This document shows positions 1-16,335 of a DNA stretch of 64,000 bases, piece by piece (position 1 is the first letter of the stretch; every line of letters begins with the position of its first letter). Under the pieces are notes generated by a model. It was given only the letters and a program-made list of their open reading frames with translations. It did not search any database and was not told the DNA's origin. A program made the translations under genes and the position numbers. Location: the NCBI GenBank assembly GCA_048884785.1, contig JBHLQM010000009.1:1-64000 (forward strand), read 5' to 3'. The DNA is from Candidatus Thorarchaeota archaeon. Lineage in GTDB: Archaea; Asgardarchaeota; Thorarchaeia; Thorarchaeales; Thorarchaeaceae.

Positions 1-77
1 ACTCGTGGACTCGACAGGGAGAGATCGCCTCCTTGGCATGGAGGAGGTCCTGGGTTCGAATCCCAGCCGGTCCACCA
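1..77 (+). tRNA. tRNA-Ala(GGC), 5' end outside the window; probable D-loop intron
   Basis: Visible elements: GATC (23-26), anticodon arm CCTCC-TTGGCAT-GGAGG (28-44), variable AGGTC, T-arm CTGGG-TTCGAAT-CCCAG (50-66), acceptor 3' strand CCGGTCC, then A-CCA (67-77). Bases 1-22 do not match the expected 5' acceptor strand, so they are intron or flank. Confidence 0.85.
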
Positions 78-134
78 TCTCATTTTCCGCTTCAGTAAAA
101 CTAAAGAGATGCCAGTCTTTTCACACTCTAGATA

Positions 135-1079
135 GTGGTGGGATTGACAGATACAGAAGAGGTAATTTTCGGGACTCTCCTTAAAGCTGACATTTCTGAT
201 ATGGGGTTCGGGACAATAGTAGTTGAACTCGAAGACAGGGAACTCGAATTGATATGGAGCAAGAAAACAGTGGGTGAAATTCCTGCTATTGGTACCAAGG
301 TATATGTTACAGTTGAGATGGCTAAGATTCCAAGAGCCTTGAAACTCTCATTGAATGAGTCTGACAGTGTTGCACAATCATCGTGGGATAAAACTGTGAA
401 AAGGCGTGAAATCGACCAAGCGATGCATGAGGCCCATATAGAATCGCCCGATCTGAGCGACAATATGTTCCTGAATGTACTAAACAATGTACTCTTCCAT
501 GAAATAGTTACCCGGAACCTCACAAGAGCAAGCAAGACACTCTCAACTCGTGCGCAGCAGGAGCTTGAGATTACAATTCCTAGTGGCCCAGGAGTGCAAG
601 ATGCCGTCAATCGGTCAAGACTAAGTGTTTTGGTTTCTAAGAAGATGATACAATTACTGCCATTCTGGATGATTCTGGAAGAGCATTTCAATTCTGATCC
701 GGTCTATCTTGTTGAGCGAGAAATAAAAGATGCAATTCAATATGCTAGGTATCAATTGCAGACCAATAAAGCAAATCAAAAGTCATGGTTGCTACTCGCA
801 TCGTGCCATGCATGGAAAAAGGACTACAAGCAAGCAGAAAAGATGATACTTGAACAAATCAGGGATTTTGGTGAGAATCAGATATCGTTATTCGCGCTTG
901 GCGCATTGGAAATGGGTAAAGATAGGATTGACCAAGCTGTTGAACATCTTGAAACTGCAGACAAAATCGCGGATGAACAAAATTTCGATGAAATGCGAAA
1001 AGTCATTCACGATGCTTGCTTCTTATCCAAACTCATGAAGAAAGCTAGAGGCTCGCCTTTCTTAGAGCCCTTCTTCTAA
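135..1079 (+). CDS. hypothetical protein with C-terminal TPR-like helices (cassette 1)
   Basis: 314-aa ORF. C-terminal SWLLLASCHAWKKDYKQAE and SLFALGALEMGKDRIDQAVEHLETA fit the TPR pattern. Confidence 0.7.
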   Translation: MVGLTDTEEVIFGTLLKADISDMGFGTIVVELEDRELELIWSKKTVGEIPAIGTKVYVTVEMAKIPRALKLSLNESDSVAQSSWDKTVKRREIDQAMHEAHIESPDLSDNMFLNVLNNVLFHEIVTRNLTRASKTLSTRAQQELEITIPSGPGVQDAVNRSRLSVLVSKKMIQLLPFWMILEEHFNSDPVYLVEREIKDAIQYARYQLQTNKANQKSWLLLASCHAWKKDYKQAEKMILEQIRDFGENQISLFALGALEMGKDRIDQAVEHLETADKIADEQNFDEMRKVIHDACFLSKLMKKARGSPFLEPFF

Positions 1080-1166
1080 ACGGATTATCAAAAAATTGAA
1101 GGATATTAGGGCAACGGCGAGCAGATTTTAGTCTTCATAAAGGGGAACTGTCCAAGTAAACCAGAA

Positions 1167-1210
1167 TGGCATGGAGGAGGTCCTGGGTTCGAATCCCAGC
1201 CGGTCCACCA
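1167..1210 (+). repeat. tRNA-Ala 3'-half direct repeat R1 (att-like)
   Basis: 44/44 identical to 34-77, starting inside the anticodon loop (TGGCAT...CCACCA). Confidence 0.97.
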
Positions 1211-1467
1211 TTTCTTTCATGATTAGGTGAACCATATCGAAACTCTTCATCACATGCAATTCTCTTTTCTTGTGGTCCTCGCTCTGTATCTGATATTGAA
1301 TCCATACCAGAGGATGAGAGTCTATCACGCATCCCAATAAAATATGGTCAAGAAGCCATTTCCACATTCAATTCATTATTGACACAAAATGTTATCTCCG
1401 AAATAATGCAGTGTATATGATATTGATATAATGAGCTGCACATCCATTGGGCTAGGAGGACAGTTCC

Positions 1468-3255
1468 ATGAGTCACTTGGCAGATGATTCGTTGCTATCG
1501 AGTGCTGAGCGGCTGGTGCTCGATGAGAGATACAGTGAGGCGCTTCACGAGATTGACAGACTCCGAAGAAACAAGATTGAAAGAGGAACTCAGTTGAGAT
1601 GTGGTATTCTAGAGAGTCGATGCTTCTCGGGTTTGGGGGACTTCGGTAAAGCAATCAAAGCTGCACAAGATGTTGTGGATATGGGAAGCAAATTCCAAGA
1701 ACATAAGATGGATGTCATAGATGGACTACTCGAGATGGCTGATGCATCATGGGGGCTTGGCCTGCCTGACATGATACTTGAAACATGTAGTAAAGCTGAG
1801 AAACTTAGGACGGAGCTGTCGACAGAAGACGAGTCCTTACTCGATTCCATCAAGGCGAATATACTTTTCCACGAGTCTCTTGGCTGGTACATGAAAGACG
1901 ACGTGCACCGGGCCATCGAGTGTGCTTGCCAGAGTCTTTCAATAAGGGAGGGATTGGAGGATGTACAAGGCATCGTATCAAGTCTTCTGCGTGTTGGATA
2001 TCTACATATTGAAGTAGATCTGGATCAAGCCCTAGAATACGTGGAGAGGGGTTTGATGCTAAATAAACAGCTCAGGTGCAATGGTCATGTCATCTTCGGT
2101 TATTCTTGCAAAGCATGTATAGAGTTAATGAGATGTAATTGGGATGAATGCGAACAACTCGCATCTCAGGCATTGACATTGGTCAAGAAACACAATCACC
2201 GGAGATGGATGCTGTGGCCTCTATTTCTATTTTCCAATATGTCCTTGGTGAAAGGAGATTTTAGACGTTCGTTGGAGTATAGCCAAGAATATCTCGCCAA
2301 AAGCGAGAAAGCCAATGCGCAACTACACATCGGTATAGCCTCTGTATATATGGGAGAAATATTCAGAGCTCGCGGAGACTTTGAGAATGCTCTGAAGGCT
2401 TATGAAAGGTCCATGGAGATTAACAGGAAAATGGGCCGTTCCAAAGGATATATTGTATCAATGGCAAATTGCGGCATGGTTGAGATTGCGATGGGACATC
2501 CAGACGAAGCCTTAATGTTACTGGAAGAGAGCCTGATGCTTGCTGAAAAGCAGGAGCAAGCTGGGCTGCTTGGCGGATTCATTAGACCATATAATATTCT
2601 CAACATCGTTTCCATTCTTGTAGATAAAGGACTGGTCAATGAGGCTCAACAGCGAGTGGAGCGTGCACGTCTGATAAGTGAAGAAACGAACGCTTTGTAT
2701 GACACACAAGCCTACAGAATAGCAGCGGCCTTGGTGTTAAAATCGAGTATGCTTCCGAGAAGCAGGAAAATAGCCAAGGAATATCTTATCGACGTAATTG
2801 ACGGAAGCTTCATTGATTATGAGCTCACTGCTATGGCTCTCTTAAATCTCGCTGAAATCCTTGTGAATGAGTTACAGATGACGGGTAATCAAGATATATT
2901 AGATGCCCTCGAAACCCGCTTGGATGCGTTGTCGACGTTGGCAAATAGGCAGGACTCTGGTTTATTGTTAATAGAAACTCTGTTGCTTCAATCTAAGGTC
3001 GCGTTACTTCAACTCGATGCAGCTAGGGTCAATCGACTTCTGGACCAAGCGAAAATTTTCGCACAAGAGAAAGGAATTGACAGAATCTTAGAACGCATAG
3101 CCAACGAACATAGCATATTATTAAATGAGTTAGGTGTCTGGGAGAACCTCGGTGAGAACAGCCCTCCAATGGCGAAACGAGCAGAGAAGGCTCGTATCCA
3201 AGAGCAGATTTATGATATGATAAGACAGGGCACATGGAGAAAGATGCTCTTCTAA
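1468..3255 (+). CDS. tetratricopeptide-repeat protein (cassette 2)
   Basis: 595-aa all-helical ORF with repeated TPR consensus, e.g. YMGEIFRARGDFENALKAYERSMEINRKMG. Confidence 0.85.
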   Translation: MSHLADDSLLSSAERLVLDERYSEALHEIDRLRRNKIERGTQLRCGILESRCFSGLGDFGKAIKAAQDVVDMGSKFQEHKMDVIDGLLEMADASWGLGLPDMILETCSKAEKLRTELSTEDESLLDSIKANILFHESLGWYMKDDVHRAIECACQSLSIREGLEDVQGIVSSLLRVGYLHIEVDLDQALEYVERGLMLNKQLRCNGHVIFGYSCKACIELMRCNWDECEQLASQALTLVKKHNHRRWMLWPLFLFSNMSLVKGDFRRSLEYSQEYLAKSEKANAQLHIGIASVYMGEIFRARGDFENALKAYERSMEINRKMGRSKGYIVSMANCGMVEIAMGHPDEALMLLEESLMLAEKQEQAGLLGGFIRPYNILNIVSILVDKGLVNEAQQRVERARLISEETNALYDTQAYRIAAALVLKSSMLPRSRKIAKEYLIDVIDGSFIDYELTAMALLNLAEILVNELQMTGNQDILDALETRLDALSTLANRQDSGLLLIETLLLQSKVALLQLDAARVNRLLDQAKIFAQEKGIDRILERIANEHSILLNELGVWENLGENSPPMAKRAEKARIQEQIYDMIRQGTWRKMLF

Positions 3256-3294
3256 TGATGACCAATCTACTAGCAAGAGATGGCATTTGCATTT

Positions 3295-4770
3295 CTAAAG
3301 CTCTGCATCGAGTGATTGGATCTTGGAAATAATCCTCCTTCGAAGGCTTTTGACACCTGGCGAATCAGAAACACTCAAAGCATTCTCAAGGGTTTCTCTG
3401 GCTGATTCGGTCTTCCCTTGCAGAATCTGTAACTCAGACTTCATGAGGTCGTGACTCATCATGATTCCTGGAAGGTTATAGTCCTCGGCAAGTTTCCATA
3501 GTTCCGACAGCCACGGACCCGAGGAATACGCATCAATATACGAACTGTCTGTTTTGGCGATAGCCAGCTCCGCTTGCGTCAAAGCTAACGAGCAGTAGAC
3601 TACATAGAGCAGTATGTTTTGTCGTTTGTATATGTCAAGAGCCTGCTTAAGAGTCTCGATGGCGGTCCTAGGATCGCCTCTGGCTATTTCGCAAATACCT
3701 AGAACGTAGTAGTATTGCCCCAAGACAGATTCGTGACCGCTCTTCAAAGACAGCGGCTTAGCTCTGTCGAGGTGGTCTGATGCTTTATCAAGTAATCCAA
3801 GACCTATCAATGAACGCGCCATAGCCAAATGGGACCAGACGATATTACCCGGATCTGCAGATTTCATTGCAGATTCAGCCCATGCAAAGGCCTCCAAATG
3901 GTCATCGAGATTATGATATGCGTGAGAAAGGTTGAGTACAGTGAAATATCCAGGTATCTCTTCACGCTCTTCGGAATGCACGCTGTCTAGGTGACAGTTT
4001 AATGCTAAGTCATACTCTCCGAGTATTGTTGATACGAGACCCATTTCGTTTAGAATCACACTTTCTTCATGTATTGCATCCAGCTCTGTACAGATAGCGT
4101 AGGCATTCTCAAGATGATCTAATGCCAACCTTACATCTGAGTTCTTTGTGAGATTCGCGAGGTCAATCAGTAGCTTCATGATTCTATAGCGATCATCATA
4201 CTTCCGTGCAGTTTCCAGTCCCGCTTCAATCTCTGCAATCGCTTTTTCGGTATTATCATCAATTGCGTGTATCCAGCATCTGATATTATGAAATCCAGCT
4301 TTGAAACACTCCAAATCCGGTTGGCTAGTCAGTATTTCGAGAATAGACTCAACAAACCCTGGGAATTCCGTAGCTAGACCTGGAAAGCCTTCACTTACCT
4401 GAGGGAGTTGAGCCAAGATCCAGTTTTCAGGTTTAGCAGCAATTGCGTTTTCAATAGACTGGCGAATTTCGGAAAGCACCATTCCGGTCTTATCTGGTAT
4501 TCTCTGACAAATGGTCCAAGGTCTGATAATGGCGTATTCAGGATACTTTGCGGCTATGCGTTGTATCATCTCCAGCTCAGTCAACTGCCAGGAGTGGACA
4601 GCAGCAAGATATGCAAGGTGAATAGGGACATCATTATCACAGACTCTGGCCCCTAGAGCTAGTGAAAATTCACGGTAGGTCCGTGAATCATTCATGATAG
4701 ACTTGATTGCATTTCTTGTTTCCGAATCAATGAAGGGGTAGTACATTGTGATTGTGCCGAGTGGTTCCAT
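3295..4770 (-). CDS. tetratricopeptide-repeat protein (cassette 2)
   Basis: 491-aa ORF with TPR units (ILNEMGLVSTILGEYDLALNCHLDS). The N-terminal MEPLGTITMYYPFID motif is recalled from an expanded Thorarchaeia TPR family. Confidence 0.85.
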   Translation of the reverse strand: MEPLGTITMYYPFIDSETRNAIKSIMNDSRTYREFSLALGARVCDNDVPIHLAYLAAVHSWQLTELEMIQRIAAKYPEYAIIRPWTICQRIPDKTGMVLSEIRQSIENAIAAKPENWILAQLPQVSEGFPGLATEFPGFVESILEILTSQPDLECFKAGFHNIRCWIHAIDDNTEKAIAEIEAGLETARKYDDRYRIMKLLIDLANLTKNSDVRLALDHLENAYAICTELDAIHEESVILNEMGLVSTILGEYDLALNCHLDSVHSEEREEIPGYFTVLNLSHAYHNLDDHLEAFAWAESAMKSADPGNIVWSHLAMARSLIGLGLLDKASDHLDRAKPLSLKSGHESVLGQYYYVLGICEIARGDPRTAIETLKQALDIYKRQNILLYVVYCSLALTQAELAIAKTDSSYIDAYSSGPWLSELWKLAEDYNLPGIMMSHDLMKSELQILQGKTESARETLENALSVSDSPGVKSLRRRIISKIQSLDAEL

Positions 4771-4894
4771 ATTCGGTTACCTGTCCACACTAACTTTGGT
4801 TCTTACTTATATTCCGCCTTCCACATACTGACAACTCTCTTTGATTTAGATTTTGTTTAGCCGTGTTCGGATGGCGATTTCAAGACACTACACG

Positions 4895-4945
4895 CTCCTC
4901 CATGTATGGAGGAGGATCGGAGTTCAAATCCCAGCCGGTCCACCA
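4895..4945 (+). repeat. tRNA-Ala 3'-half direct repeat R2, diverged, with palindromic anticodon-arm analogue
   Basis: 4906-4945 matches 38-77 at 35/40. Its left end forms the inverted repeat CTCCTCCAT-GT-ATGGAGGAG (4895-4914). Confidence 0.9.
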
Positions 4946-5031
4946 TTCTATTCCTACTCACAATGTGGGTGTAACTGGAAATCTTGACTAAATGTTGAAA
5001 TATGTTTCAGGTTGAATCATGTTGAACTAAT

Positions 5032-5463
5032 ATGACTTCGATGAGCCAGGAAGCAAATGGCTTTAGAATTGTAAGACTTTTAGCTATTCTTTTTCTTGCC
5101 AATGCGATAATCTTACCTCTTCTTGTCATCATCCTGCCTTTACCTGACCTTCCTCCAGCAACGACACCATCAATTATGTCATTGATCATGATGATACTAA
5201 TGCCTCTGGAATTATTTCTTGTCTACATCCTCTATCAACTTCTAGGAAAGAAAACGAATACCAAGAATATTCCCGGAATTGCAGCTCTACTATTTGTGAC
5301 AGGCACTATTCCCTCGGTTTATGGTTTTGCAATCGGGTTCACTGATCCAAGTTTTCGATTTCTGGGTGCATTCATGGGTCTGGTTTTTGGACTATCAGGA
5401 ATGTTTCTTGCGTGGAAGCTAATTAATCGGGTATGGGACTCGATTAATGCAGACACCCTCTAA
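5032..5463 (+). CDS. small integral membrane protein, ~4 TM (cassette 3)
   Basis: 143-aa ORF with four hydrophobic stretches; fills the space between R2 and R3. Confidence 0.75.
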   Translation: MTSMSQEANGFRIVRLLAILFLANAIILPLLVIILPLPDLPPATTPSIMSLIMMILMPLELFLVYILYQLLGKKTNTKNIPGIAALLFVTGTIPSVYGFAIGFTDPSFRFLGAFMGLVFGLSGMFLAWKLINRVWDSINADTL

Positions 5464-5486
5464 GAAAGAGAGTGATGCAATAACAA

Positions 5487-5530
5487 TGGCATGGAGGAGG
5501 TCCTGGGTTCAAATCCCAGCCGGTCCACCA
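5487..5530 (+). repeat. tRNA-Ala 3'-half direct repeat R3
   Basis: 43/44 identical to 34-77 (TTCAAAT vs TTCGAAT); same left boundary as R1. Confidence 0.97.
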
Positions 5531-5627
5531 CTTCTTACTGCTCCTTACACCCATAGACTCGGATGCGCTGAGAAATCATCTTATTACAAACGAGAGGTAT
5601 GCTATCCCATAAGGGTCTGATAAGTGA

Positions 5628-6320
5628 GTGAAACTCATGAAGCTTCTAGTTTTCAATGGAAGTCCTAGAAAATCTAATGGTACAACCGACATCCTTTTGC
5701 AAGCCTTTATTGAAGGTGCAAAAGAATCAGGGGCTGATGTTGAAAAGCACTATGTAGTCGATTTGAATATTGGCGGATGCCGAGGATGTTTCAACTGCTG
5801 GTGGGTAACACCAGGTAAATGTGTACAACGGGATGATATGGATACGCTCCTACCTGCGATTGCAGAAGCTGATATCATGTTACTTGGTACTCCAATCTAC
5901 GGACGCAATGTTACTCATTACATGCAGCGACTACTGGAACGGACCTTCTCATTCTCTCTTCCCGAGATGATGATTCAAGAAGGTGAAACACGCCATCCTG
6001 GAAGAATACGCAAGTTTCCCCGTGGGGTTTTGGCTGCGACATGCGGTTTTCCTGACACTAGCAACTTCGATATTGTAAAAGCCCTTTTTCCAACAGTACT
6101 TCCAATCTTTCTACCTGCAGCTCATTTATTGCTCTACGAAGAGGGAAAGAAGCAACTTTCGGACTTTCTCCAGGCTGTAAGGGATGCAGGACAGAAGCTT
6201 GCTGCAGGTGAGGAACTCACTCAGGAATCGAAGGATAATCTGATCGTTGAATTCTCAGATGAGATGAAACAGAAAATTGTGGAAATGCACAATAGATATA
6301 GTGAATCACGAAGCCAATAG
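5628..6320 (+). CDS. flavodoxin-fold NAD(P)H-dependent FMN reductase / iron-sulfur flavoprotein family (cassette 4)
   Basis: NGSPRKSNGTT FMN loop, CxxCxxC...C cluster motif (CRGCFNCWWVTPGKC), GTPIY. ATG at 5637 is a likely start. Confidence 0.9.
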   Translation: MKLMKLLVFNGSPRKSNGTTDILLQAFIEGAKESGADVEKHYVVDLNIGGCRGCFNCWWVTPGKCVQRDDMDTLLPAIAEADIMLLGTPIYGRNVTHYMQRLLERTFSFSLPEMMIQEGETRHPGRIRKFPRGVLAATCGFPDTSNFDIVKALFPTVLPIFLPAAHLLLYEEGKKQLSDFLQAVRDAGQKLAAGEELTQESKDNLIVEFSDEMKQKIVEMHNRYSESRSQ

Positions 6321-6414
6321 CACCCTCCTATCCGATCTCTCTTGGTTCAACATCTCTTTCCAGTTTGAAGGAAACGGAACGGATGCCATCATTGTGTATT
6401 TCAACCAAAGCAGG

Positions 6415-6456
6415 GGAGGTCGTGTGTTCGAATCCCAGCCGGTCCACCATCTCATT
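6415..6456 (+). repeat. tRNA-Ala 3' direct repeat R4 including 7 nt of tRNA trailer
   Basis: 6426-6456 is identical to 54-84, including TCTCATT after CCA. GGAGGTC matches 43-49. The T-stem 5' strand is GTGTG instead of CTGGG. Confidence 0.93.
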
Positions 6457-6600
6457 CTAAACTGAATACAAGACAATAGCTGTGGTCATATCCGTGATTC
6501 TGTGGACTATCCCTTCTCACTATCTCCTCCTCCTGGCACTCAAGCACCATTTGCGGGGAAGATTTCCCTTTTATGGTGATTTCATCATCTGCTGTGCACT

Positions 6601-7086
6601 ATGACAAACGTTGAGGCAGAGGAAAGAAAGAAGACAATTCAGACTTTCAAGAACTGCGAGATTCGTCACGCTCGGGATAAGGCAGCTATCCTAGGTGCAC
6701 TAGAGAAGCGATTTGGCTCAGAGGTAAGAGAAATCTTCGCCGAGGAGAGATCAAAGATAATCTGTGAAGCCTGGAGAAAGATTGCTGAAAAGTCTAAAGG
6801 TGAAACACCAGCCGATCTCATTAGGGTGATGTGGGAGCCTGTCAAGGACATATTTCCATACGAGATTGAAAGAGAGGAAGAAGGGGAAATCCAGCTCAGG
6901 GTTTCAGGATGCATATACTACGACGTTGCAAAGGAAGTCGGCATCGAAGGCACTTGGGGTTACGACTTGTTTTGTGGGGATGATCCATACATTGTGGCGG
7001 GATTCAATCCGAAGATGAAGTTCGAACGAACCAAGACGTTGATGGAAGGAGATGGCTATTGTGATCACTGCTACACTTTGAAGTGA
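6601..7086 (+). CDS. L-2-amino-thiazoline-4-carboxylic acid hydrolase (ATC hydrolase) family protein (cassette 5)
   Basis: C.YY...C..D...GFNP..KFERTKTLMEGDGYCDH signature. Confidence 0.85.
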   Translation: MTNVEAEERKKTIQTFKNCEIRHARDKAAILGALEKRFGSEVREIFAEERSKIICEAWRKIAEKSKGETPADLIRVMWEPVKDIFPYEIEREEEGEIQLRVSGCIYYDVAKEVGIEGTWGYDLFCGDDPYIVAGFNPKMKFERTKTLMEGDGYCDHCYTLK

Positions 7087-7190
7087 GCAGAGAAAGAATT
7101 GAGGATTGTAGGGGTTGGAAGACCCTTCGGATACTGTTATTCGCCAACAAACGGATCACTAATCGAGTCTTCTTTCAAGGATTAACTTGA

Positions 7191-7270
7191 CTTCCAAAAT
7201 GGAAGAGGTCGCGTGACTCCGTGCAACTCGTTTTTGTGGGGTACGAATTCGAATCCCAGCCGGTCCACCA
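7191..7270 (+). repeat. chimeric tRNA-fragment repeat R5 with a 32-nt intron-like insert
   Basis: CTTCC-AAAAT-GGAAG-AGGTC-GCGTG, then a 32-nt insert (7216-7247), then 23/23 identity to 55-77. Confidence 0.9.
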
Positions 7271-7274
7271 CCAA

Positions 7275-7712
7275 TTAATACTCCTTTCTGAAGGCGGAAT
7301 CCATTATTTTCCTCCCCTCTTTCAGACAGCAATTCCTGCAATTTGCCCGTTTCGCTGCAACAATCCCATATCCTACATGTGCAGTTCCCTTCGAATCTTG
7401 GTTTATCGAAACCACTCTTCCGCATGAGGTGAGATACAGATCTCGTTCAATTCCCTTACTCCAACCTCTGGCAGAGTGTATTGGCTCATCTTCTTTAGTA
7501 AGAAAGACTTGGGTCAATCGAACCTCTAAACCAAGTCCAAACTTTAAACCAAGTCCAGCCAGAATGAATCCAAGTCCAACCAGAAAGGGGATCGGAGATG
7601 GAATATAGAGGCTTCCGGTCAAAAGGATACGTGCAGAAACAGGAATGAGGAAAAACAGTACGCCTGCGAAAACAAGTAGTCCTCCAATTAGGCTATAGAA
7701 ATTCTCATCCAT
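7275..7712 (-). CDS. 2-TM membrane protein with C-terminal His/Cys putative metal-binding domain; paralogue of 13467-13850
   Basis: Two hydrophobic helices, then EPIHSA..W.KG...C.R.VS...GTAHVGY.IV.A..A.CxxC, shared with the ORF at 13.5 kb. Confidence 0.8.
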   Translation of the reverse strand: MDENFYSLIGGLLVFAGVLFFLIPVSARILLTGSLYIPSPIPFLVGLGFILAGLGLKFGLGLEVRLTQVFLTKEDEPIHSARGWSKGIERDLYLTSCGRVVSINQDSKGTAHVGYGIVAAKRANCRNCCLKEGRKIMDSAFRKEY

Positions 7713-7925
7713 TTATACTTCTCCCCGTCATAATATAGTATCCATCGCACTTCATCTTTTCGCCGTCTGGCATCAGCTTTTTCACAAAGTTGTTTATCCC
7801 GAATCTTCACATCAAGCCTATATACAGGCTCTGACATCATCTTGTAAGCAACCCCCTCATACTCGGGAAAAAGAGCTGACACGCTTAGTTTCGAGTAGTG
7901 GTGTAAAAGATAATGAGACGGTTTT

Positions 7926-9053
7926 ATGGTAGACTGGGAAACTTGGGAAGGCGTTGTGCTTCGGAAACTCGAATTGCCAAATGGAAAGGTAGCATCCAAT
8001 CGGATCATGCGGGCCGCTACTTGGATGGGACAGGCTGATGCAAATGGGATTTGTGGAAACCAGATCATCGACACATATGGAAAGATCAGAGCTGGTATCG
8101 TAGTGACTGACTTTCAGTATGTGATGTATGAGGGACAGTCCATTCGACGGATGATTTCAAACTCAAAGCCTGCTGATGTTGAGGGTCTTAAACGTCTAGC
8201 TGACATTATTCATTCTAAAGGTAATCTAGCAGCGGCTCAATTGGTTCATTGTGGGGCCAAGAGTTATCCAAAATATGCAGGCATTGATGTGGTATTTGGA
8301 CCCAGTGATATGGAAGTCCCACACCCGCGGGGTGAGATTGTTCGTGTGCAGGCAATGACTGTGGAGCATATTGAGAGAGTTACCCAGGCCTATGCAGATG
8401 CAGCGAAACGTGCAGTTGAGGCAGGATTTGATATCATTGAGCTTCATGGAGCTCATCATTATGGGCTCTGGGAATTCTTTGACCCAACATACAATCAGCG
8501 TCCAGAAAGTGATCCTTACACTGGTACTACAATCGAAGGCCGCTGTAAGGCAATGGTTGATGCCGTAAGAGCAGTCAAAAATGCGGTCGACATTCCAATC
8601 CAAGTGAAGGTGGATTCAAGGTCTAAATCAGTCAGTCCTCAGGAAGTTGGTGAATTGACAAAGAAACTGGCTGAAGCAGGAGCATATTGTGTGATTTTCA
8701 GTGGACCCAACCCAAGCCAAGATCCAAAGGACGTAGGTGAGGCATACTTCCTGGACGATGCAATGGCTATCCGTTCCATTGCACATGATACAGGTCTCAT
8801 GTTTGGATTGGTGGGTGGTATCCGGTCTCCAGAAACTGTAGTCAAGCTACTATCAGGAGATGGAAATCCTGCAAATGCGTTCGATGTAATTCAGCTGAGC
8901 CGCCCATTAATTAGTGAGCCTGCACTTCTAGACCGGTGGAAGGAAGAGGCGAAAAAGAACAAACAAGAGCCTGCGCGATGCATATCCTGCAATAATTGTC
9001 TTTGGAATGGCTTTATAGAGCATGTGAGATGCGTTCAGTTTGAAGACGATTAA
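7926..9053 (+). CDS. NADH:flavin oxidoreductase / Old Yellow Enzyme family with C-terminal Fe-S motif
   Basis: NRIMRAAT, AQLVHCG, AGFDIIELHGAHHY, LSRPLISEP, CISCNNC...C. Confidence 0.92.
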   Translation: MVDWETWEGVVLRKLELPNGKVASNRIMRAATWMGQADANGICGNQIIDTYGKIRAGIVVTDFQYVMYEGQSIRRMISNSKPADVEGLKRLADIIHSKGNLAAAQLVHCGAKSYPKYAGIDVVFGPSDMEVPHPRGEIVRVQAMTVEHIERVTQAYADAAKRAVEAGFDIIELHGAHHYGLWEFFDPTYNQRPESDPYTGTTIEGRCKAMVDAVRAVKNAVDIPIQVKVDSRSKSVSPQEVGELTKKLAEAGAYCVIFSGPNPSQDPKDVGEAYFLDDAMAIRSIAHDTGLMFGLVGGIRSPETVVKLLSGDGNPANAFDVIQLSRPLISEPALLDRWKEEAKKNKQEPARCISCNNCLWNGFIEHVRCVQFEDD

Positions 9054-9067
9054 TGTTGAGGATTAAT

Positions 9068-9130
9068 GACCTGACTCTTCGGTCCCTGCAGACCCGAGAA
9101 GCATTTTTCGGATCCCATTAATCCACACCA
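9068..9130 (+). repeat. possible heavily decayed tRNA 3' remnant R6
   Basis: TTCGGATCCCA...CACCA (9107-9130) resembles TTCGAATCCCA...CACCA. It is preceded by a hairpin and by GACCTG (compare GTCCTG) and lies between genes. Confidence 0.4.
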
Positions 9131-9204
9131 TCCATTATGAAGAACTTGTTCTGGGAACGCAAAAGAGATTAACACTCAGAATAAAGTATAGTGGGGGATA
9201 CGTT

Positions 9205-10242
9205 TTGGCAAATCATCTACCGCCAAAAATAGTGAAGAGAAGGATTGCCATGGCTGCCTTCTTGGTTGTAGTGATTATCTCTTCAGGTATTGTAGTATTT
9301 GGCGTTCTCTCAACATTGTATAATGAATCTCATGAAGCTCCGCTTCCGGGAATTCCTATAGAGAATACGGTTTTTGCAGGGCTAGCGAATGCCGCTGGAG
9401 ATCCCGCATTTTTGCCTGCAGGACCGCTGATATCAAACTATGATAGTGTTACAATGAATATAACCGAGGCAATCGACCAACCGATAATCTCTCAAGAGGA
9501 AGCAGAACAGATTGGGGCCAACAGCTTCTCCCAATTTCCATATATGTCAGGTGTTACCTTGGAGCCGGATCATTTCTGGAACGAGCTACGTGATAATCCC
9601 TACTACTCGCTTCGGTATTTCGTTGGGCAGTATGAGTTCTATGCAGGTGTAAACGCCTTGACTGGACGAGTAATCGTAGTTTCACCTCACTGGTCGGTTC
9701 TCATGCAATATAATACCAGTACTGAATCAGAAGTGTTGTCCGTAGAGGAGATCCAGGAGTGCGCATACGAGTTCTTGGAGTGGAATAACTACAGCCTTTC
9801 AAGCACTGCAAGAGTTGAAACTCCTGTCATAGAGAAGGATACAATACTTACCAACTTTCCTGCATATCACTTGAAATTCTACTGTTCAGTCAATGGATGT
9901 CTTATTCCTAGCAACTACCTATCCATGCTTCTCAGTATTAAAACAGGTGTCGTGATGAGATTCATATATCACTGGAGAAATATAACGCACATCCCAGTCG
10001 AAAATGTAGTTCCTGCTTTGAACGCAGAAAATGTGGCCCGGGCGCACCTGAGTCAGAATCTTCAAGCCAGTAATTTCACTATCATCTCCAGTAGTCTTCA
10101 ATTTCGTAAAGTCACTACATGGCCTATTCTGAAGTTGCAATTGTGCTGGCTGATAGATATTCGTCACGAATTATACGGTCCCATTGTAATCAATGCTCTC
10201 AACCTAGAAGTACTTCAAGTCGGTCAAAAGGTGAATTGGTGA
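9205..10242 (+). CDS. membrane-anchored exported protein (PepSY/YcdB-like repeats possible)
   Basis: N-terminal TM helix, repeated ISQEEA / LSVEEI and VNALTGRV / SIKTGVV motifs, many N-x-S/T sequons. Confidence 0.7.
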   Translation: MANHLPPKIVKRRIAMAAFLVVVIISSGIVVFGVLSTLYNESHEAPLPGIPIENTVFAGLANAAGDPAFLPAGPLISNYDSVTMNITEAIDQPIISQEEAEQIGANSFSQFPYMSGVTLEPDHFWNELRDNPYYSLRYFVGQYEFYAGVNALTGRVIVVSPHWSVLMQYNTSTESEVLSVEEIQECAYEFLEWNNYSLSSTARVETPVIEKDTILTNFPAYHLKFYCSVNGCLIPSNYLSMLLSIKTGVVMRFIYHWRNITHIPVENVVPALNAENVARAHLSQNLQASNFTIISSSLQFRKVTTWPILKLQLCWLIDIRHELYGPIVINALNLEVLQVGQKVNW

Positions 10243-10294
10243 ATTACTGGCAGCATCCTCACGAAACTCCCAAAAAAGCAAGTCACGATAATTC

Positions 10295-11584
10295 TTAGAG
10301 TAACTCAGTCACGTGTCCTCGATTTTTGCTTAGAATTGGGTCGTCTGCTTTTAGAAGCACAAAGAAGGCTACGATGAGGATAACAGAAGCCGCTATAAAT
10401 GGGACCATCCCAATAAGGCCTGAATGGGAAGCCCCGGGTACAGGAGTGGCAGTCACATCAGCCAGATAACCAAGTAGTATGGGTCCAACCACAAAACCCG
10501 CATCACTAATTGTGCGATAGAGTCCCATGGATATCTCGAGCTTGTCTTTTGGCGAAAGATCTGTTATGTATGCGGCACTAGGACCGGATAGACCAATCAC
10601 AGCGCCATAGATTGCCATTGTGATTCCCAATGTTGGCATATCTGACGAGAATGGGATTAGTAGAATAATAACGGCAGATAGGACAAGGCACAAGGCAAGG
10701 GGAATCTTCCTTCCGATTCTGTCTGAAATGCTTCCCATAGGCACAATAGTAATTGCAGTTGTTATACCTGCAAATGTGAGAATCAACCCAACAGAACTCG
10801 GGCCAAGACCAAGGTTGTTGGTTGCAAATAGCGGTACCAGTGTAGTTCTCACACCTGTGCGCAAGAAGAATGTCGTGAAGATTGCGAATGTTGCAAGGAG
10901 AAATGAAGGGGCTATCAGAACCTGTTTCATATCATGGAAGATTTCCTTGGGTTTTAGGATGGAAGATGTGTTTCCAGAGTTTGATAGTTTTGGCAAAACC
11001 AGAGTAGGAATGACACCTAATCCAGTGATTATTGCGTACGCAAAGAACGGCGCACGTATATCATAGGCATCTGCAATCACTCCTCCAAATGTGGGTCCAA
11101 AGATGGCTCCAAGAAGTAGCATGCCCATATACATGCTCATGTACTTTCCTCTCTTTTCCTCGCCGGAAATCTGAGCAAGAAAGACTGTAGCTGTGGTCAC
11201 GTAAAGGGCTGAACCTGCACCTTCAATCATCCTGGCAATTATCAAGACGGGATAATTGGGAGCCGCCCCTGCGAGAATAGAAGATGTCGAGATTAGAAGC
11301 AAGCCTGAAACCATTATTCTCTTCTTGTCTACTTTTCTGGAAAGAAGACCGGCTGGTATATCCAGAACCATTCTAGTTACCGCAAATGATGAAACTACGA
11401 ATCCAACAAGGGTGTATGAAACCTGAAAGCTTTCTGCGTATGTAGGTAGAATCGGAGCAACCATGCTCAAACCAAGCAGTACTAGGAAAGTCACTAGGGA
11501 TAGGTTCAGTACTGTTGGAACGTTTCCCTCGTAATCCACATTTGATGGAGTATGACTATCCAGTTCGTGGCTCTCTTCAGACAA
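10295..11584 (-). CDS. MFS transporter (DHA1-like)
   Basis: ~12 TM segments; motif A GSISDRIGRK; IARMIEGAG; GPTFGG. Confidence 0.93.
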   Translation of the reverse strand: MSEESHELDSHTPSNVDYEGNVPTVLNLSLVTFLVLLGLSMVAPILPTYAESFQVSYTLVGFVVSSFAVTRMVLDIPAGLLSRKVDKKRIMVSGLLLISTSSILAGAAPNYPVLIIARMIEGAGSALYVTTATVFLAQISGEEKRGKYMSMYMGMLLLGAIFGPTFGGVIADAYDIRAPFFAYAIITGLGVIPTLVLPKLSNSGNTSSILKPKEIFHDMKQVLIAPSFLLATFAIFTTFFLRTGVRTTLVPLFATNNLGLGPSSVGLILTFAGITTAITIVPMGSISDRIGRKIPLALCLVLSAVIILLIPFSSDMPTLGITMAIYGAVIGLSGPSAAYITDLSPKDKLEISMGLYRTISDAGFVVGPILLGYLADVTATPVPGASHSGLIGMVPFIAASVILIVAFFVLLKADDPILSKNRGHVTELL

Positions 11585-11658
11585 CTACTGACAACCTTCC
11601 AGAATGAAGAGCAATATCCTCCATTTAAATAACTTTGAGTTGCCTATTCCTACCGAAG

Positions 11659-11699
11659 TGGAAGAGGTCGCGTGTTTAAACCACGATCGTTTTACACCA
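11659..11699 (+). repeat. decayed tRNA 3'-half remnant R7 of a second tRNA type
   Basis: TGGAAGAGGTCGCGTG is 16/16 identical to 7200-7215. It is followed by T-loop-like TTTAAAC, the complementary strand CACG, and a terminal ACCA. Confidence 0.7.
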
Positions 11700-11806: not shown

Positions 11807-12841
11807 ATGGTACTAAGTCGAAGGAATCGGATGTTTGCTGCAATTATACTGACATCTCTTGTGATAGGAATCACATTCACCTTCGTTTATTTCTTGAACT
11901 TCGCAAACCCAGCAGAACTGGAGCCGCCAGGAGAGAATCCCCTTGTTTTAGATTTCAATTTGATCGCAGAAGTTGATACGGGATCTTTTGCATTGAGTGT
12001 ACATGTAGACGGAGATACTGCATTCGTTCTTGATACCGACGAAACTGGCACATTAGGGTTAGTCATTGTGGATATCAGTAATCCCTACCTGCCTGAAATC
12101 TTAGGAACATATCACAATGGAGGGCTTCCTTTCAATTTAGAGTCCAAGGGTGACATAGTATACATCGCAGACCAAGAAGAAGGACTTAGAATTATAGATA
12201 TCTCAAACCCTGCCCAACCTGTAGAACTCGAGGGATACTCAGGCAGCGGAATGGCATTCGATGTGAAAATAGTTGGGAATTATCTGTACTTTGCTGATTA
12301 CGAATATGGAATGGTTGTGTTGGACATCAGTAATCCTAGCACGCCGGTTTATGTCACAAACTATGAGACTGGGTGTGTGCATTTAGAAATTGAGGATGAT
12401 ATTGCATATATTGCAGGTCATGGGAATCTGGTTTTACTCGATGTCAGTGATCCCACCCAGCCCACTTTCATAGGCGGAACTCCAGAAAGTAGCACTACGC
12501 TTTGGGACCCCTCAGTATCTAATAATACAATCTACCTTGCCAATCACAGTGGAGATGATGGCGAGTTGATGATATTTGATGCAAGTGACCCGTCTAATAT
12601 TGAAATGACTGGTGAGTTTGATTCAGAAGGTACATTCCAATCATTCTACGTACAAGATTCTCTGCTGTATGCAGTTGACTTTGTAGCTGGACTGTATCTA
12701 TTGGATGTGCGCAATTCAGCCACTCCTGTTGAGATTACTAGATTCTCGGATGGACAACCTTGGGATGTTACACTAAGTGATGGTTTAGTTTATCTCGTTG
12801 GTTCGGAAGGCCTACAAATCCTTCAGATCGTTTCAGCCTGA
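11807..12841 (+). CDS. LVIVD-repeat beta-propeller protein with N-terminal membrane anchor
   Basis: Repeated YIAD..GLRIIDISNP..P units, including a literal LVIVDISNP. Start moved to ATG 11807 because the longer ORF overlaps R7. Confidence 0.9.
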   Translation: MVLSRRNRMFAAIILTSLVIGITFTFVYFLNFANPAELEPPGENPLVLDFNLIAEVDTGSFALSVHVDGDTAFVLDTDETGTLGLVIVDISNPYLPEILGTYHNGGLPFNLESKGDIVYIADQEEGLRIIDISNPAQPVELEGYSGSGMAFDVKIVGNYLYFADYEYGMVVLDISNPSTPVYVTNYETGCVHLEIEDDIAYIAGHGNLVLLDVSDPTQPTFIGGTPESSTTLWDPSVSNNTIYLANHSGDDGELMIFDASDPSNIEMTGEFDSEGTFQSFYVQDSLLYAVDFVAGLYLLDVRNSATPVEITRFSDGQPWDVTLSDGLVYLVGSEGLQILQIVSA

Positions 12842-12885
12842 TTCCTGGCTTTGAGCCTATGATTTGCTTTCTAGATTCATCGTTT

Positions 12886-13368
12886 CTATTCAAAGACTAG
12901 CTCATACAACTCCATATCTAGGCCCCACAGATGCTTCCTGAGGTGTCCGCATTTCCTAAACCCATATTTCTTGTAGAGTGCTATTGCTTCTTTTAGAAAT
13001 GGAACTGTATCTAGCCAGACTTTGGACGCATTCTTTAATCGAGCATTCTCAATTACTGCTTCAACAAGTGCTCGTCCGATGCCGTGATTTCTCTGTTCTT
13101 TAGCAATAGCTAGATGAGTTAGACAACACGTGCCATGCCTGAAGCTGCATCCAACAACCCCAGTGATTCCATCTGCAACCTCTGTAACAAAATACGTATC
13201 TTCTCTCATCCACTCAACAACCCCTTTCGTTGAAGGGGTCCTAGATTCGAGCAGTTCTGGAGGGAATCTGTCGGCATAATCTTTCCACACACTTCTATAC
13301 AGCTCGGAGATATCTGATGCATCCTTGGTATCCGCGATTCTAATGACAAAGCCTGACATCGGAAACAC
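12886..13368 (-). CDS. GNAT family N-acetyltransferase
   Basis: QRNHGIGRAL acetyl-CoA motif A; AIALYKKYGF. Confidence 0.9.
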   Translation of the reverse strand: MFPMSGFVIRIADTKDASDISELYRSVWKDYADRFPPELLESRTPSTKGVVEWMREDTYFVTEVADGITGVVGCSFRHGTCCLTHLAIAKEQRNHGIGRALVEAVIENARLKNASKVWLDTVPFLKEAIALYKKYGFRKCGHLRKHLWGLDMELYELVFE

Positions 13369-13466
13369 CTCGACGGGTCTGTCGACATCTTCGAATATTA
13401 AGAAGAGTATTCTTAGGACAGAATAAGGCTCCTACAAAACTCAAAATCCTCGCTCAGTTCTAATCC

Positions 13467-13850
13467 TTACACTTCTTCTGCGATCGCCTTTCTTTCTTTT
13501 TCTTTGCATTCATTACATGTGGCGTGCTCAGCTGTAACAATTCTATATCCGACATGTGCAGTGCCAATTGAGAGCGAATCTATGGATACCAACCGTTCAC
13601 ATCTTGTGATGAACAATCCTGGTTCAGGTCCTTTTTTCCAAACGAATGCTGAGTGAATAGGCTCTCCTGCCTTGGTTACAAATAGATGAGGCTCCCTGTG
13701 TCTTCTATAGTTGGCAATTCCTGCAATAGCCACAACGAATCCAAGAAATAGATTCCAATAAACCAGAGGGTAAAAGGGGGTAGCTAGTAGTAATAATATC
13801 CCGATTAAGACTAGTATTTTTCCGAGAGAACGAAGATCAAAATCATCCAT
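13467..13850 (-). CDS. 2-TM membrane protein with His/Cys domain; paralogue of 7275-7712
   Basis: Shares the EPIHSA / GTAHVGY / CxxC pattern. Start placed at ATG 13850 (MDDFDLRSLG) by analogy with the paralogue. Confidence 0.8.
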   Translation of the reverse strand: MDDFDLRSLGKILVLIGILLLLATPFYPLVYWNLFLGFVVAIAGIANYRRHREPHLFVTKAGEPIHSAFVWKKGPEPGLFITRCERLVSIDSLSIGTAHVGYRIVTAEHATCNECKEKERKAIAEEV

Positions 13851-13872
13851 GGATATTCTGTGAAATCTCAAT

Positions 13873-14475
13873 TTATCTCCAGTGCAATCCATAGACTTCA
13901 GAGAAAGCAATCTGCTGTATCATCTTCGTTGAACGAGGAGAAGGTATTTCATCTGCAACTCCAAGAGTGATTAATGCAACTATATCCACGTTATCTGGTA
14001 TTCTTAATGCCGCTTTGACATCAAGGATACTTTCTTTGTGCCGAGAATCAAGCATTGCAACCCAGCATGATCCGTATCCCAATGCGGTTGCTGCTAGAAC
14101 TACATGCTCTGCTGCAATCATTGTATCCTGAACATACCACATCGATGCGTTTCCTGGGCAACATGATGCGCCACGATTAGCTAATGCCATGATGACTGCT
14201 TTTGCATCTGAAATGAATCGCTGTCGACCTGCAACTTCGCTGAGTAATTTGATTGTTTCAGGTTCTTTAATTACAAGGAACTGCCATGGCTGTGTGTTAT
14301 TGGTCGAGGGAGCCAATTGTGCAGCTTCAATCATACGTGTGATATCCTCATCAGGGATTTCAATATCCTTGTATTTCCTGATACTCCTCCTTTTTTGAAC
14401 AACTTCAAAGAAATCGGATGACTTGTTTTGCAAACTCTCTGAAATTTCTGGCACCGTGAATGTTCTCTCGCCCAT
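13873..14475 (-). CDS. nitroreductase family protein
   Basis: RRSIRKY, APSTNNTQPWQF, ATALGYGSCW. Likely start at ATG 14475. Confidence 0.92.
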   Translation of the reverse strand: MGERTFTVPEISESLQNKSSDFFEVVQKRRSIRKYKDIEIPDEDITRMIEAAQLAPSTNNTQPWQFLVIKEPETIKLLSEVAGRQRFISDAKAVIMALANRGASCCPGNASMWYVQDTMIAAEHVVLAATALGYGSCWVAMLDSRHKESILDVKAALRIPDNVDIVALITLGVADEIPSPRSTKMIQQIAFSEVYGLHWR

Positions 14476-14601
14476 AGACACCACCAATATTATCTGACGC
14501 CCAATATATCTGACATCCAATATATAAACGTAAAGAACACAGCAAGTCCAATACTTCCTACGCTGGAAAACTGAAAAAGGGGGTCCGATAATATTGAAGC
14601 T

Positions 14602-16335
14602 TTACAGTTTGTGAGTCTTTTTCCAAGAGCGAATTATATCATGAATTGCCATTTCATCAATGCGTCCATGTGGAGATAGTCTCTCAATCAGACGTCTTGG
14701 TGGTTCAAGTTCTTCGAGATCAAAGCCCTCTTGAATCTTGAAGCGCATTCGAAGATGAAATACATCTTCTCCAATTCGATTGAGTTCTTCAGCAGTCCTT
14801 TCCTCTCCAAGTGCCTTGAGTGAGCTAAGCACTACATCCGGAGTGAACACTGGACGCGCAAACAAGCAGATGATTAGAGAATTAAGAACAGTGCGCCATG
14901 TGTCTTCTTTCGCGATTTCCTTTCCAATTTGCTCGTTTGTCATCGCTCCTGCAAAAGCCTTCTCATCGATACTGTATCCTGCATTATCCAGATGACTATG
15001 ACGTATTCCAACCATCTGTCCCACAATATTGGCAGGACCTGTATGATATCCTGAAGCTTCATTGTTGGAAAAGTGAACTGCAAATTCACTCCCGCCGTAC
15101 CTAGAAGAGAGTGCACTCACTCCCATTCCAGCAAGTCGATAGAATTCGTTAGGTGGTACAGTAATCCTGTCTATCATCTTCAAATATGCTTCAACATTCC
15201 CCCAACGAGGCGAAAGGCCTGCAAGATCTTCTCCTGTTACTAGGCCTTTGTTGTATGCCTCAGTAATCCATCCTAGCACAACGCCTGCACTCATTGCATC
15301 AAGACCACGAAGGTCAGCTCTTTCAATGAGCTGAAGCACATCTGAGGTGGAGCCAATACCAAGATTAGAGCCAAAGGCAAAGATCAGCTCATAATCATAG
15401 GGAACATACACAGTACCATAATCGCGATGTTCAGGATTAAACTGAACTCGTAGTTCTCCTATATGGATACAACCTATAGGACATGGAACACACGAGCTCT
15501 TGCCTACAAGAGTGTCGTCTGCAAATCTCTCGCCCGATATTCCTTCAGCTCCTTCAAATGAGAACGAACTGAAATTCCGAGTCGGAAGTGCCTGAATCTC
15601 GTTGAGATGGAGTACATTCTTTGATGTCCCGAGTATGTCATACTTGTCCATTCGCCCCGTTCGAAGAACCAAATCGTGCACCTTCTTGTACTCCTCACGG
15701 TATTCCTTGATCGATGGCACTTTGTAATTGTGTGTACCTGTAATTACCATCCCTTTCAGTTTCTTTGATCCCATCACACAGCCTAGACCTAGCCTGCCGA
15801 AATGCCGTACTGTGTCAACTACAGCCATGGCATACCTCACTTGGTTTTCGCCAGCAACGCCTATTCTGAGAATAGAACGTCTTCCTTCTCCTGGTGCCTT
15901 TTCCTTGAGTATACGGCCGGTCGCTCTAGTAGATAATCCCCACAGTGCATGGGCATTTCTAAACTCAACACTGTTATCCTGAATCAGCAGATAGTGCGGG
16001 CGGTCAAGCTTTCCAGTTATTAGGATGACATCATGTCCTGCCAATCTCATGGCTATGCTCATCTTGCCACCAGCATAGCTTTCACCCAGGTTGCCAGTTA
16101 GAGGTGACTTGAATAGTGCGACGGTCTTTGCGCAGCATGGGTAGAACATATTCAAAGGTCCAGTGGCAAAGATGATTGGAGCATCCTCATAGGGTGTGTC
16201 GGGAGGACAATTATCCAGTAGAAGTTGAGAAGCAACCCCAACGCCGCCAATATACTTCTCGAAGAGGTCTTTCCGTTCTATTGTTTCAGTGGTCTTTGCA
16301 GATAGATCAATGTGGAGAACCTGTCCTTGTATCAA
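14602..16335 (-). CDS. aor: tungsten-dependent aldehyde ferredoxin oxidoreductase (AOR/WOR family), large subunit
   Basis: KSPLTG, GRLGLGCVMGSKKLK, CxxCPIGC, D..GLD motifs. The TTG start at 16335 overlaps the stop of the upstream ferredoxin, with GGAGGTGG upstream. Confidence 0.9.
   Translation of the reverse strand: MIQGQVLHIDLSAKTTETIERKDLFEKYIGGVGVASQLLLDNCPPDTPYEDAPIIFATGPLNMFYPCCAKTVALFKSPLTGNLGESYAGGKMSIAMRLAGHDVILITGKLDRPHYLLIQDNSVEFRNAHALWGLSTRATGRILKEKAPGEGRRSILRIGVAGENQVRYAMAVVDTVRHFGRLGLGCVMGSKKLKGMVITGTHNYKVPSIKEYREEYKKVHDLVLRTGRMDKYDILGTSKNVLHLNEIQALPTRNFSSFSFEGAEGISGERFADDTLVGKSSCVPCPIGCIHIGELRVQFNPEHRDYGTVYVPYDYELIFAFGSNLGIGSTSDVLQLIERADLRGLDAMSAGVVLGWITEAYNKGLVTGEDLAGLSPRWGNVEAYLKMIDRITVPPNEFYRLAGMGVSALSSRYGGSEFAVHFSNNEASGYHTGPANIVGQMVGIRHSHLDNAGYSIDEKAFAGAMTNEQIGKEIAKEDTWRTVLNSLIICLFARPVFTPDVVLSSLKALGEERTAEELNRIGEDVFHLRMRFKIQEGFDLEELEPPRRLIERLSPHGRIDEMAIHDIIRSWKKTHKL

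Follow-up and report, generated by a model that had tools for sequence, protein, structure and literature searches.

Minimal gene cassettes between tRNA 3'-end repeats form shuffled arrays in Thorarchaeota, with no integrase detected at the arrays

Background

Repeated copies of a gene's 3'-end mark the sites of several insertion systems described so far. In Dehalococcoides, 16 islands at the ssrA gene carry a six-gene integration module beside their left end (PMC3146451). The tycheposons of Prochlorococcus encode integrases, and partial tRNAs mark their degenerating elements (bioRxiv 10.1101/2020.12.28.424599). Tandem integration is known in archaea (PMC8371274, PMC3293823), and the transfer of archaeal tRNA introns by integration was reported for one locus, where a recombinase was predicted (Sugahara et al. 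2012, PMC3293823; PMC8371274). Anticodon loop and T-loop are the two symmetric sites used by tyrosine integrases (PMC8371274). Archaeal integrons, together with clusters of attC sites that lack an integrase, offer a further comparison (bioRxiv 10.1101/2022.02.06.479319). In this study we describe an array of gene cassettes punctuated by 3'-end copies of tRNA-Ala(GGC) in a 64,000-nucleotide stretch (the window) of a Candidatus Thorarchaeota archaeon (GenBank assembly GCA_048884785.1, contig JBHLQM010000009.1, positions 1 to 64,000 of the forward strand), and its counterparts across the family.

In fungal mitochondria, endonuclease inserts carry a replacement 3'-end. Homing-endonuclease elements at conserved genes have also been described, such as HeimM2 in Heimdallarchaeum (PMC8813620), and so has amplification by phage SegB near tRNA genes (PMC13096335). 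As to the Asgard archaea, our literature search, in which subscription journals were largely outside coverage, found no description of such arrays, and a keyword look-up in three papers on Asgard mobile elements (PMC8813620, PMC11529989, 10.64898/2026.08.12.739948) returned none. The window opens contig C9 of its genome, G000, a bin of 3.6 Mb with a completeness of 91% and a contamination of 5.4%; in the following, G numbers denote catalogued genomes, C numbers contigs of G000 and L numbers loci. Close homologs of the window genes are held by records named Thorarchaeota.

Results

The tRNA-Ala(GGC) gene of the window ends at position 77, and clear direct copies of its 3'-end, ending at 1210, 4945, 5530, 6449 and 7270 with repeat-to-repeat spacings of 1133, 3735, 585, 919 and 821 bp, delimit together with several decayed copies units of 0.6-3.7 kb. 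The alignment scores of these copies are 46-88, against a background maximum below 32 over 13,664 scanned windows, and the repeat ends, spacings and gene content proposed in a first-pass annotation, which was made from the letters alone, were reproduced. A Pfam search through all units of the window agrees with the same annotation in returning no mobility gene.

Since contigs frequently break at repeats, an array of this kind might be thought a product of misassembly. However, one 21-kb Logan contig carries the whole window array in one piece at 99.97% identity, and three further conspecific assemblies are concordant, in the same order, across their overlap (GCA_048883445.1 containing part of the array). 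Moreover, the repeats differ from each other in sequence, and arrays recur in 26 genomes. With independent assemblies giving the same array, we regard the chance of an artefact as negligible.

To describe the arrays family-wide, 114 repeat-to-repeat intervals were catalogued, and the removal of 4 that span different tRNA genes left 110 units in 26 genomes. Detection was anchored on the core from the T-loop to the CCA end, by which shorter or more decayed repeats are missed, and the search pattern gave 0 matches in 200 kb of background. These units lie mostly at tRNA-Ala(GGC), and the relatives have arrays at other tRNAs as well. The median unit length is about 1.1 kb, 71 of the 110 units hold a single gene, and the spare DNA amounts to 146 bp at the median; the first units of G009 and G024, at 10-12 kb, are far larger. 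Some genomes have no array behind tRNA-Ala(GGC), e.g. G014, G016 and G021. Upstream of this tRNA in relatives, the genes are varied and none of them is an integrase.

The ends of the units are conserved across genomes: homologous single-gene units differ in length by a median of only 21 bp (37 pairs), with proteins inside those cassette families often just 35-90% identical, and orientation is retained in 76 of 82 homologous unit pairs. The order of the units is shuffled, both orders being seen for 18 of the 36 family pairs that are present in at least two arrays. Among 20 metagenomic loci retrieved with the family of unit 3, a repeat stands 42-48 nt past the match in 12, and the neighbours are highly variable. 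Gain or loss is visible in G098, which is without the first two units that precede the same 625-bp cassette in G009, the tRNA genes of the two being near-identical. Transfer between genera has been recent, as unit 5 of the window is 91-94% identical in DNA at L278/L279 and L280 with different neighbours, and its protein is 93-96% identical in those hosts, whose neighbouring genes have best G000 matches of mostly 30-70%. The gene pair of unit 2 is likewise found in another array (L274/L275) at 81.5% identity and with different neighbours. These comparisons support the view, already taken in the first-pass annotation, that the units are minimal, non-autonomous and discrete cassettes which relatives acquire, lose and rearrange at the repeats; gene order is not fixed, and the breakpoints lie at the repeats. 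We consider this cassette layout and mobility highly probable. The common orientation does not extend to the family: the four single-gene units of the window are co-oriented with the tRNA, but family-wide 45 such units point the same way and 26 the opposite way.

A scan of other tRNA genes, which the annotation had proposed, revealed similar arrays in G000 and in relatives. In G000, tRNA-end repeats at other tRNAs bound units of one or two genes on C14 (47627-49839 and 37-1204), C29 (23274-24813), C138 and C119. Contig C99 (L083, 1-6099) has a second tRNA-Ala(GGC), intron-free and with a different T-arm, followed by its own array of four repeats; it could represent a second locus, or else contaminating DNA of a related genus, and C138 encodes an oxidoreductase that shares 85% identity with one of that group. 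At tRNA-Ala(TGC) of G054 (L088:2357-4055), two identical 849-bp units stand in tandem between near full-length tRNA copies. A complete tRNA-Ala(GGC) oriented away from the array occurs at L034, L086, L193, L202, L154, L155, L206 and L279.

The junctions lie in the loops of the tRNA. In homologous pairs, sequence to the left of the T-loop moves with the upstream unit and sequence to the right of the CCA moves with the downstream unit. The left edges of 186 fragments lie mostly in the T-loop (123, counting in a small number of decayed and T-intron copies), with 36 more in the anticodon loop or where an intron ends, and 27 in the variable loop. In the window, the match to the tRNA starts at the anticodon loop in the copies that end at 1210 (44/44) and 5530 (43/44). 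The copies with ends at 4945, 6449 and 7270 are of host type between T-loop and CCA alone, with foreign sequence on the left side, and all three of these chimeric repeats change allele within the T-loop. The 23-nt core is host-type in five of the five intact repeats, both flanks being cassette-specific. The copy ending at 7270 is a relic of about 98 nt (7173-7270) with the end of an anticodon intron and a 32-nt T-arm intron, an intron layout that resembles complete tRNA genes in relatives; unit 5 retains this same relic in three hosts, with a 3' T-stem that is different from host to host, the window's copy being of host type.

Regarding the tRNA itself, the resident T-arm and the intron state differ even inside one genus, which is as expected if insertion swaps 3'-halves, and the first repeat has a foreign 3' T-stem in many arrays. 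An anticodon intron is present in about half of the 47 tRNA-Ala(GGC) loci and arrays form nonetheless, both intron-bearing and intron-free alleles serving as array sites. At dozens of loci, intron-bearing tRNA 3'-halves sit on cassettes, with introns at three positions. A T-arm intron interrupts tRNA-Ala(GGC) at L204, L206, L154 and L155, in some of them along with an anticodon intron, and other genes have a D-loop intron. Within each of the arrays L031 (735, 1986, 7087, 8159) and L274 (2911, 4859), several repeats have in common a probably non-functional T-loop change that is not in the tRNA; T-loop variants shared in this way within one array (G005, L274) suggest copying between repeats. Decay depends weakly on distance from the tRNA family-wide, with 1.9-2.5 mismatches at ranks 1-5 and 4.5 beyond. 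An Rfam search gave matches to the tRNA clan only. A pyrimidine-rich trailer follows every CCA, and a promoter shared by the array is therefore unlikely; a sigma-70 promoter scan stayed at chance level, with a model ill-suited to archaea.

The same layout of duplicated tails is not confined to tRNAs. In G000 it is found behind 16S rRNA, rpl2, mvhD, ligA and one gene each on C21 and C67. The 3' trailer of 16S rRNA is found again three or more times, interspersed with cargo genes (L248, C72 98-4906), and the tail of the C21 gene has three spare copies (L249, C21 24-4579). At rpl2 (L255, C63 12583-16215), three extra genes are followed by the displaced piece, covering residues 120-176 at 74% amino-acid identity, and the neighbour beyond this insert is directly adjacent to rpl2 in G005. 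The displaced tail copy of mvhD in G000 is 76% identical. Repeats at these non-tRNA anchors are 40-230 bp long and 51-95% identical, and have no sequence in common. Because the layout occurs at rpl2, mvhD, ligA and 16S, a tRNA-specific integrase is insufficient: it does not account for these anchors, and homology-directed insertion with 3'-end replacement does. Repeat arrays or single duplications of protein-gene tails comprise, besides L249, L263 (C65), L253 (C67), L251 (C79) and, putatively, L250 (C116 259-5087).

The only recurrent DNA-cutting gene at these loci encodes a LAGLIDADG-fold protein. It takes the first slot at 9 of the 47 loci (2 of which were fetched because of this gene), where its stop codon abuts the end of tRNA-Ala(GGC) and a HerA/VirB4-like ATPase often accompanies it. 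Both catalytic motifs are largely retained, and the fold matches I-Tsp061I, PI-SceI and I-DmoI. The family is present in 48 of 86 genomes, and 8 of 38 LAGLIDADG genes are bracketed between an anchor-like repeat and its copy, versus 2 of 23 integrases. In G024, a stub of the nuclease gene persists behind an internal repeat; in G001, a split tRNA has an inverted spare tRNA and the LAGLIDADG gene next to it, and the 5' piece of the original tRNA gene is found beyond the nuclease gene. A module of HerA/VirB4-like ATPase, large protein with helix-turn-helix and LAGLIDADG parts, and small unassigned protein (L093:14426-15715, L043:3189-8456, L172-L191) occurs in multiple copies in about half of the family genomes, and one subgroup of it abuts tRNA ends. 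We weighed whether the small gene frequently found downstream of the LAGLIDADG gene might be a hidden integrase, and dropped the idea, as it matches no recombinase family. One HNH gene lies in a G024 unit and has no homolog in G000 or the other checked loci.

The search for an integrating enzyme gave no candidate in G000. Profile searches with PF00589, PF16795, PF00239, PF07508, PF01867, PF00078, PF02371 and PF01797 returned nothing over cut-off, so that recombinases of the tyrosine and serine types, Cas1, reverse transcriptase and enzymes of IS110 or IS200 went undetected there, and a profile built from 28 integrases of relatives found nothing either. Across the family, PF00589 had matches in 29 of 86 genomes and none in 57, in an imperfect search that overlooked one G001 match found in another search. 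XerA is present in most archaea, and neither an XerA-like nor another tyrosine recombinase was detected in those 57 genomes. None of 22 tyrosine-recombinase loci of the family has a complete tRNA end in the fetched stretches of up to 20 kb, some of them limited by a contig edge; a partial T-arm-like match about 0.9 kb upstream of one G008 integrase is the sole hint of a link to integrases. The 47 tRNA-Ala(GGC) loci and the fetched arrays showed no integrase, the bins being incomplete, and two scans of viral contigs did not find the tRNA site. Weak 'integrase' matches inside arrays turned out to be zinc ribbons, and the units have no terminal inverted repeats. The trans-acting recombinase that the first-pass annotation had invoked is thus without a candidate in G000 and without a complete tRNA end near the 22 loci examined in relatives.

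The window array in detail begins within the 3' part of a D-loop intron. The anchor tRNA-Ala(GGC) occupies 1..77 (plus strand, as do the features below unless noted), with its 5'-end beyond the contig edge, and the 5' part is not present in the assembly. Unit 1 holds a gene for a 314-aa protein containing tetratricopeptide repeats (TPR), possibly with an N-terminal OB/cold-shock domain (135..1079), for which a close homolog was not found, and it closes with the first repeat of anticodon-loop type (1167..1210). Two TPR proteins of 595 aa (1468..3255) and 491 aa (3295..4770, minus strand) make up unit 2, followed by a chimeric repeat (4906..4945) whose decayed left part moves with the unit. Unit 3 encodes a 143-aa membrane protein (5032..5463), the family of which is a 540-585-bp single-gene cassette in six catalogued genomes and many metagenomic arrays, and ends in the second repeat of anticodon-loop type (5487..5530). 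The flavodoxin/FMN reductase of unit 4 (5628..6320) has a 921-bp cassette counterpart in G052 at 80% amino-acid identity; behind it stand a decayed repeat (6329..6352), intact in relatives 33-43 nt past this gene, and a chimeric repeat (6404..6449) joining an intron end and a foreign 5' T-stem to host-type sequence from the T-loop onward. Unit 5 encodes an ATC-hydrolase-family protein (6601..7086), and the left part of its relic repeat (7173..7270) moves with it, the anticodon-intron end reaching 7199, the T-arm intron spanning 7216-7247 and the host-type core 7248-7270.

Beyond this point the repeats are decayed. Unit 6 combines a 145-aa membrane/Zn-finger-like protein (7275..7712, minus strand), a single-gene cassette in G002 and G054, with an NADH:flavin oxidoreductase (7926..9053), a single-gene cassette in G053; between them lie a probable remnant of a deleted repeat (about 7799..7806) and then the leader that precedes the oxidoreductase cassette in relatives. 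After a heavily decayed repeat (9107..9130), unit 7 contains a 345-aa protein (9205..10242), a single-gene cassette in G063 (64% amino-acid identity), and an MFS transporter (10295..11584, minus strand), which lies inside a repeat-bounded unit in G045 (77%), and ends with a decayed relic of an intron-bearing foreign allele (11650..11699). Under the repeat profile the remnants ending at 9130 and 11699, both claimed in the first-pass annotation, are each below significance alone; they are backed by other evidence, as the former aligns with a true repeat in G063 at an equal offset before a homologous gene, and 11650-11674 is 88% identical to 7191-7215. The remnants ending at 6352 and near 7800 had been missed, and genes as far as about 16.75 kb sit within repeat-bounded units in relatives. 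These distal genes (11831..16751) have no visible repeats in the window; an LVIVD protein, a second unit-6 membrane gene and a nitroreductase and aldehyde oxidoreductase pair are repeat-bounded in relatives, and an acetyltransferase was not seen in a repeat-bounded unit there. Fused leaders and lost repeats are thus visible in the window. The small membrane-protein cassette gene occurs twice in this one array (7354-7388 and 13531-13565, 46-51% identity).

Discussion

The account we favour, with about even chances of being right, is that the array is free of any integrase and was built by homology-directed replacement of 3'-ends, possibly primed by a nuclease. Incoming DNA from related Thorarchaeota, with one or two genes between two tRNA 3'-end pieces, would recombine either with the tRNA in place or with one of its spare copies, mostly in the T-loop and sometimes in the anticodon loop; the tRNA would be rebuilt, and the displaced piece left behind the new genes would become the next landing and excision site. 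A unit could originate when a break in the recipient's tRNA, at its T-loop or anticodon loop, lets a gene from downstream of a donor tRNA be copied in, the old 3' part staying behind the copied-in gene. Any unit between two copies might then be excised, inserted or converted by recombination between them, and old units would shed their repeats and become fixed distally. The exchange itself would be general homology-directed recombination or break repair, presumably active at rRNA trailers and protein-gene tails too, and free-standing LAGLIDADG nucleases, carried along in the first slot, may supply some of the breaks. Erosion of larger elements contributes as well, e.g. in the nuclease stub of G024.

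Several points weigh against this account. A 23-bp repeat is short for RadA-type recombination. About two thirds of the repeats (123 of 186) have a sharp start in the T-loop, and a further 36 start in the anticodon loop or where an intron ends; such edges count against it because tyrosine integrases use both sites (PMC8371274). As 30 of the 38 LAGLIDADG genes are not bracketed and the family was not found in the window, G000 or G005, the nuclease may be cargo rather than primer, and two of its nine first-slot cases owe their place in the sample to the nuclease gene. Conspecific assemblies keep the same order across their overlap, and no circle, empty site or cleavage was observed, the evidence being assembled sequences.

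An alternative is that tyrosine integrases of passing elements act in trans on tRNA and fragment sites, the units being minimal islands mobilisable in cis or in trans. The left edges do cluster at both known crossover loops (PMC8371274), the T-loop is where all three chimeric repeats of the window switch allele, tandem ssrA islands without an integrase are known in Dehalococcoides (PMC3146451), and the T-arm-like match in G008 fits; moreover, mobile elements get lost from metagenome bins and the PF00589 search is imperfect. Nevertheless we think it unlikely, for no integrase was seen at the 47 tRNA-Ala(GGC) loci or in the fetched arrays, the 22 integrase loci have no complete tRNA end nearby, the viral contigs lack the site, intron-bearing and intron-free alleles are both used, and the anchors at rpl2, mvhD, ligA and 16S are left unexplained. 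An unrecognised host enzyme that cuts tRNA ends with a stagger and so duplicates the core from T-loop to CCA, in the manner of Cas1 or a casposase, would explain the host-type state of this core in each of the five intact repeats of the window, between cassette-specific flanks. It is improbable given the foreign 3' T-stem in the first repeat of many arrays, the lack of Cas1 in G000 and of terminal inverted repeats in the units, and repeats of 44-98 nt and gene-tail anchors that do not fit.

If, on the other hand, each repeat were the far end of an independent large integrase island that was later eroded, the units would be vertically inherited fossils. The nuclease stub of G024, the fused leaders and lost repeats of the window and the large first units of G009 and G024 can be read in this way. 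However, independent erosion is not expected to yield the same ends within about 20 bp across genera, nor do vertically inherited fossils agree with both orders for half of the family pairs or with a unit 5 at 93-96% in hosts whose neighbouring genes stand mostly at 30-70% against G000, and the large units contain no integrase; this reading is largely refuted already and very improbable.

A wider proposal would be that Thorarchaeota have a general way of gene capture without an integrase, in which any highly conserved gene end, be it that of a tRNA, an rRNA trailer or a protein tail, can become a cassette array by replacement of the 3'-end, seeded by free-standing LAGLIDADG nucleases and maintained by recombination at short homology, with the same traffic swapping tRNA T-arms and introns between lineages; we hold its chances to be somewhat below even. 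The arrays point to a specific way in which Asgard archaea gain accessory genes and change their order with no integron integrase, and they offer a testable natural system for the open question of how introns enter archaeal tRNA genes and spread among them. Should repeats of 23 bp be enough for exchange, the enzyme behind it would deserve attention of its own.

Comparison with known systems

Whether its enzymology makes the array categorically new is a question on which we lean slightly towards no. The Dehalococcoides ssrA islands are alike in their many direct 3'-end repeats, the T-loop junction and the integrase-less tandem units; unlike them, the array has no detected integration module, consists of units of about 1 kb with ends conserved across genera, and has parallels at non-tRNA anchors. 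Prochlorococcus tycheposon islands also acquire scattered partial tRNAs by serial insertion, whereas the Thorarchaeota units are stable minimal cassettes. Like a cis-mobilisable element, the units are flanked by direct repeats of a tRNA 3'-end and have no integrase inside. A casposon differs, as there is no Cas1 in G000 and the units lack terminal inverted repeats.

In the transfer of archaeal tRNA introns, intron-bearing tRNA pieces move with the insert, and a split tRNA with a spare copy has its match in G001, but here dozens of loci are involved, with intron-bearing 3'-halves on cassettes and three intron positions. The homing-endonuclease elements agree in having a nuclease gene adjoining a conserved anchor, a displaced tail behind it and no integrase; none of them is described as seeding a multi-gene exchangeable array, and cleavage by the Thorarchaeota nuclease is a prediction.

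With integrons the array shares mostly single-gene units, little spare DNA, a shuffled order and a pool common to lineages. In contrast to them, no IntI was found in G000 or beside the tRNA in relatives, a simple motif scan found no R''+R' attC pair near the five clear repeats, which are tRNA sequence, and 26 of 71 single-gene units are reversed, so that cassettes are not co-oriented. The parallel that the first-pass annotation drew, with the tRNA as attI and its fragments as attC, is therefore apt as a functional likeness and fails for attC boxes and for a shared orientation: the array works like an integron, yet it is not an integron.

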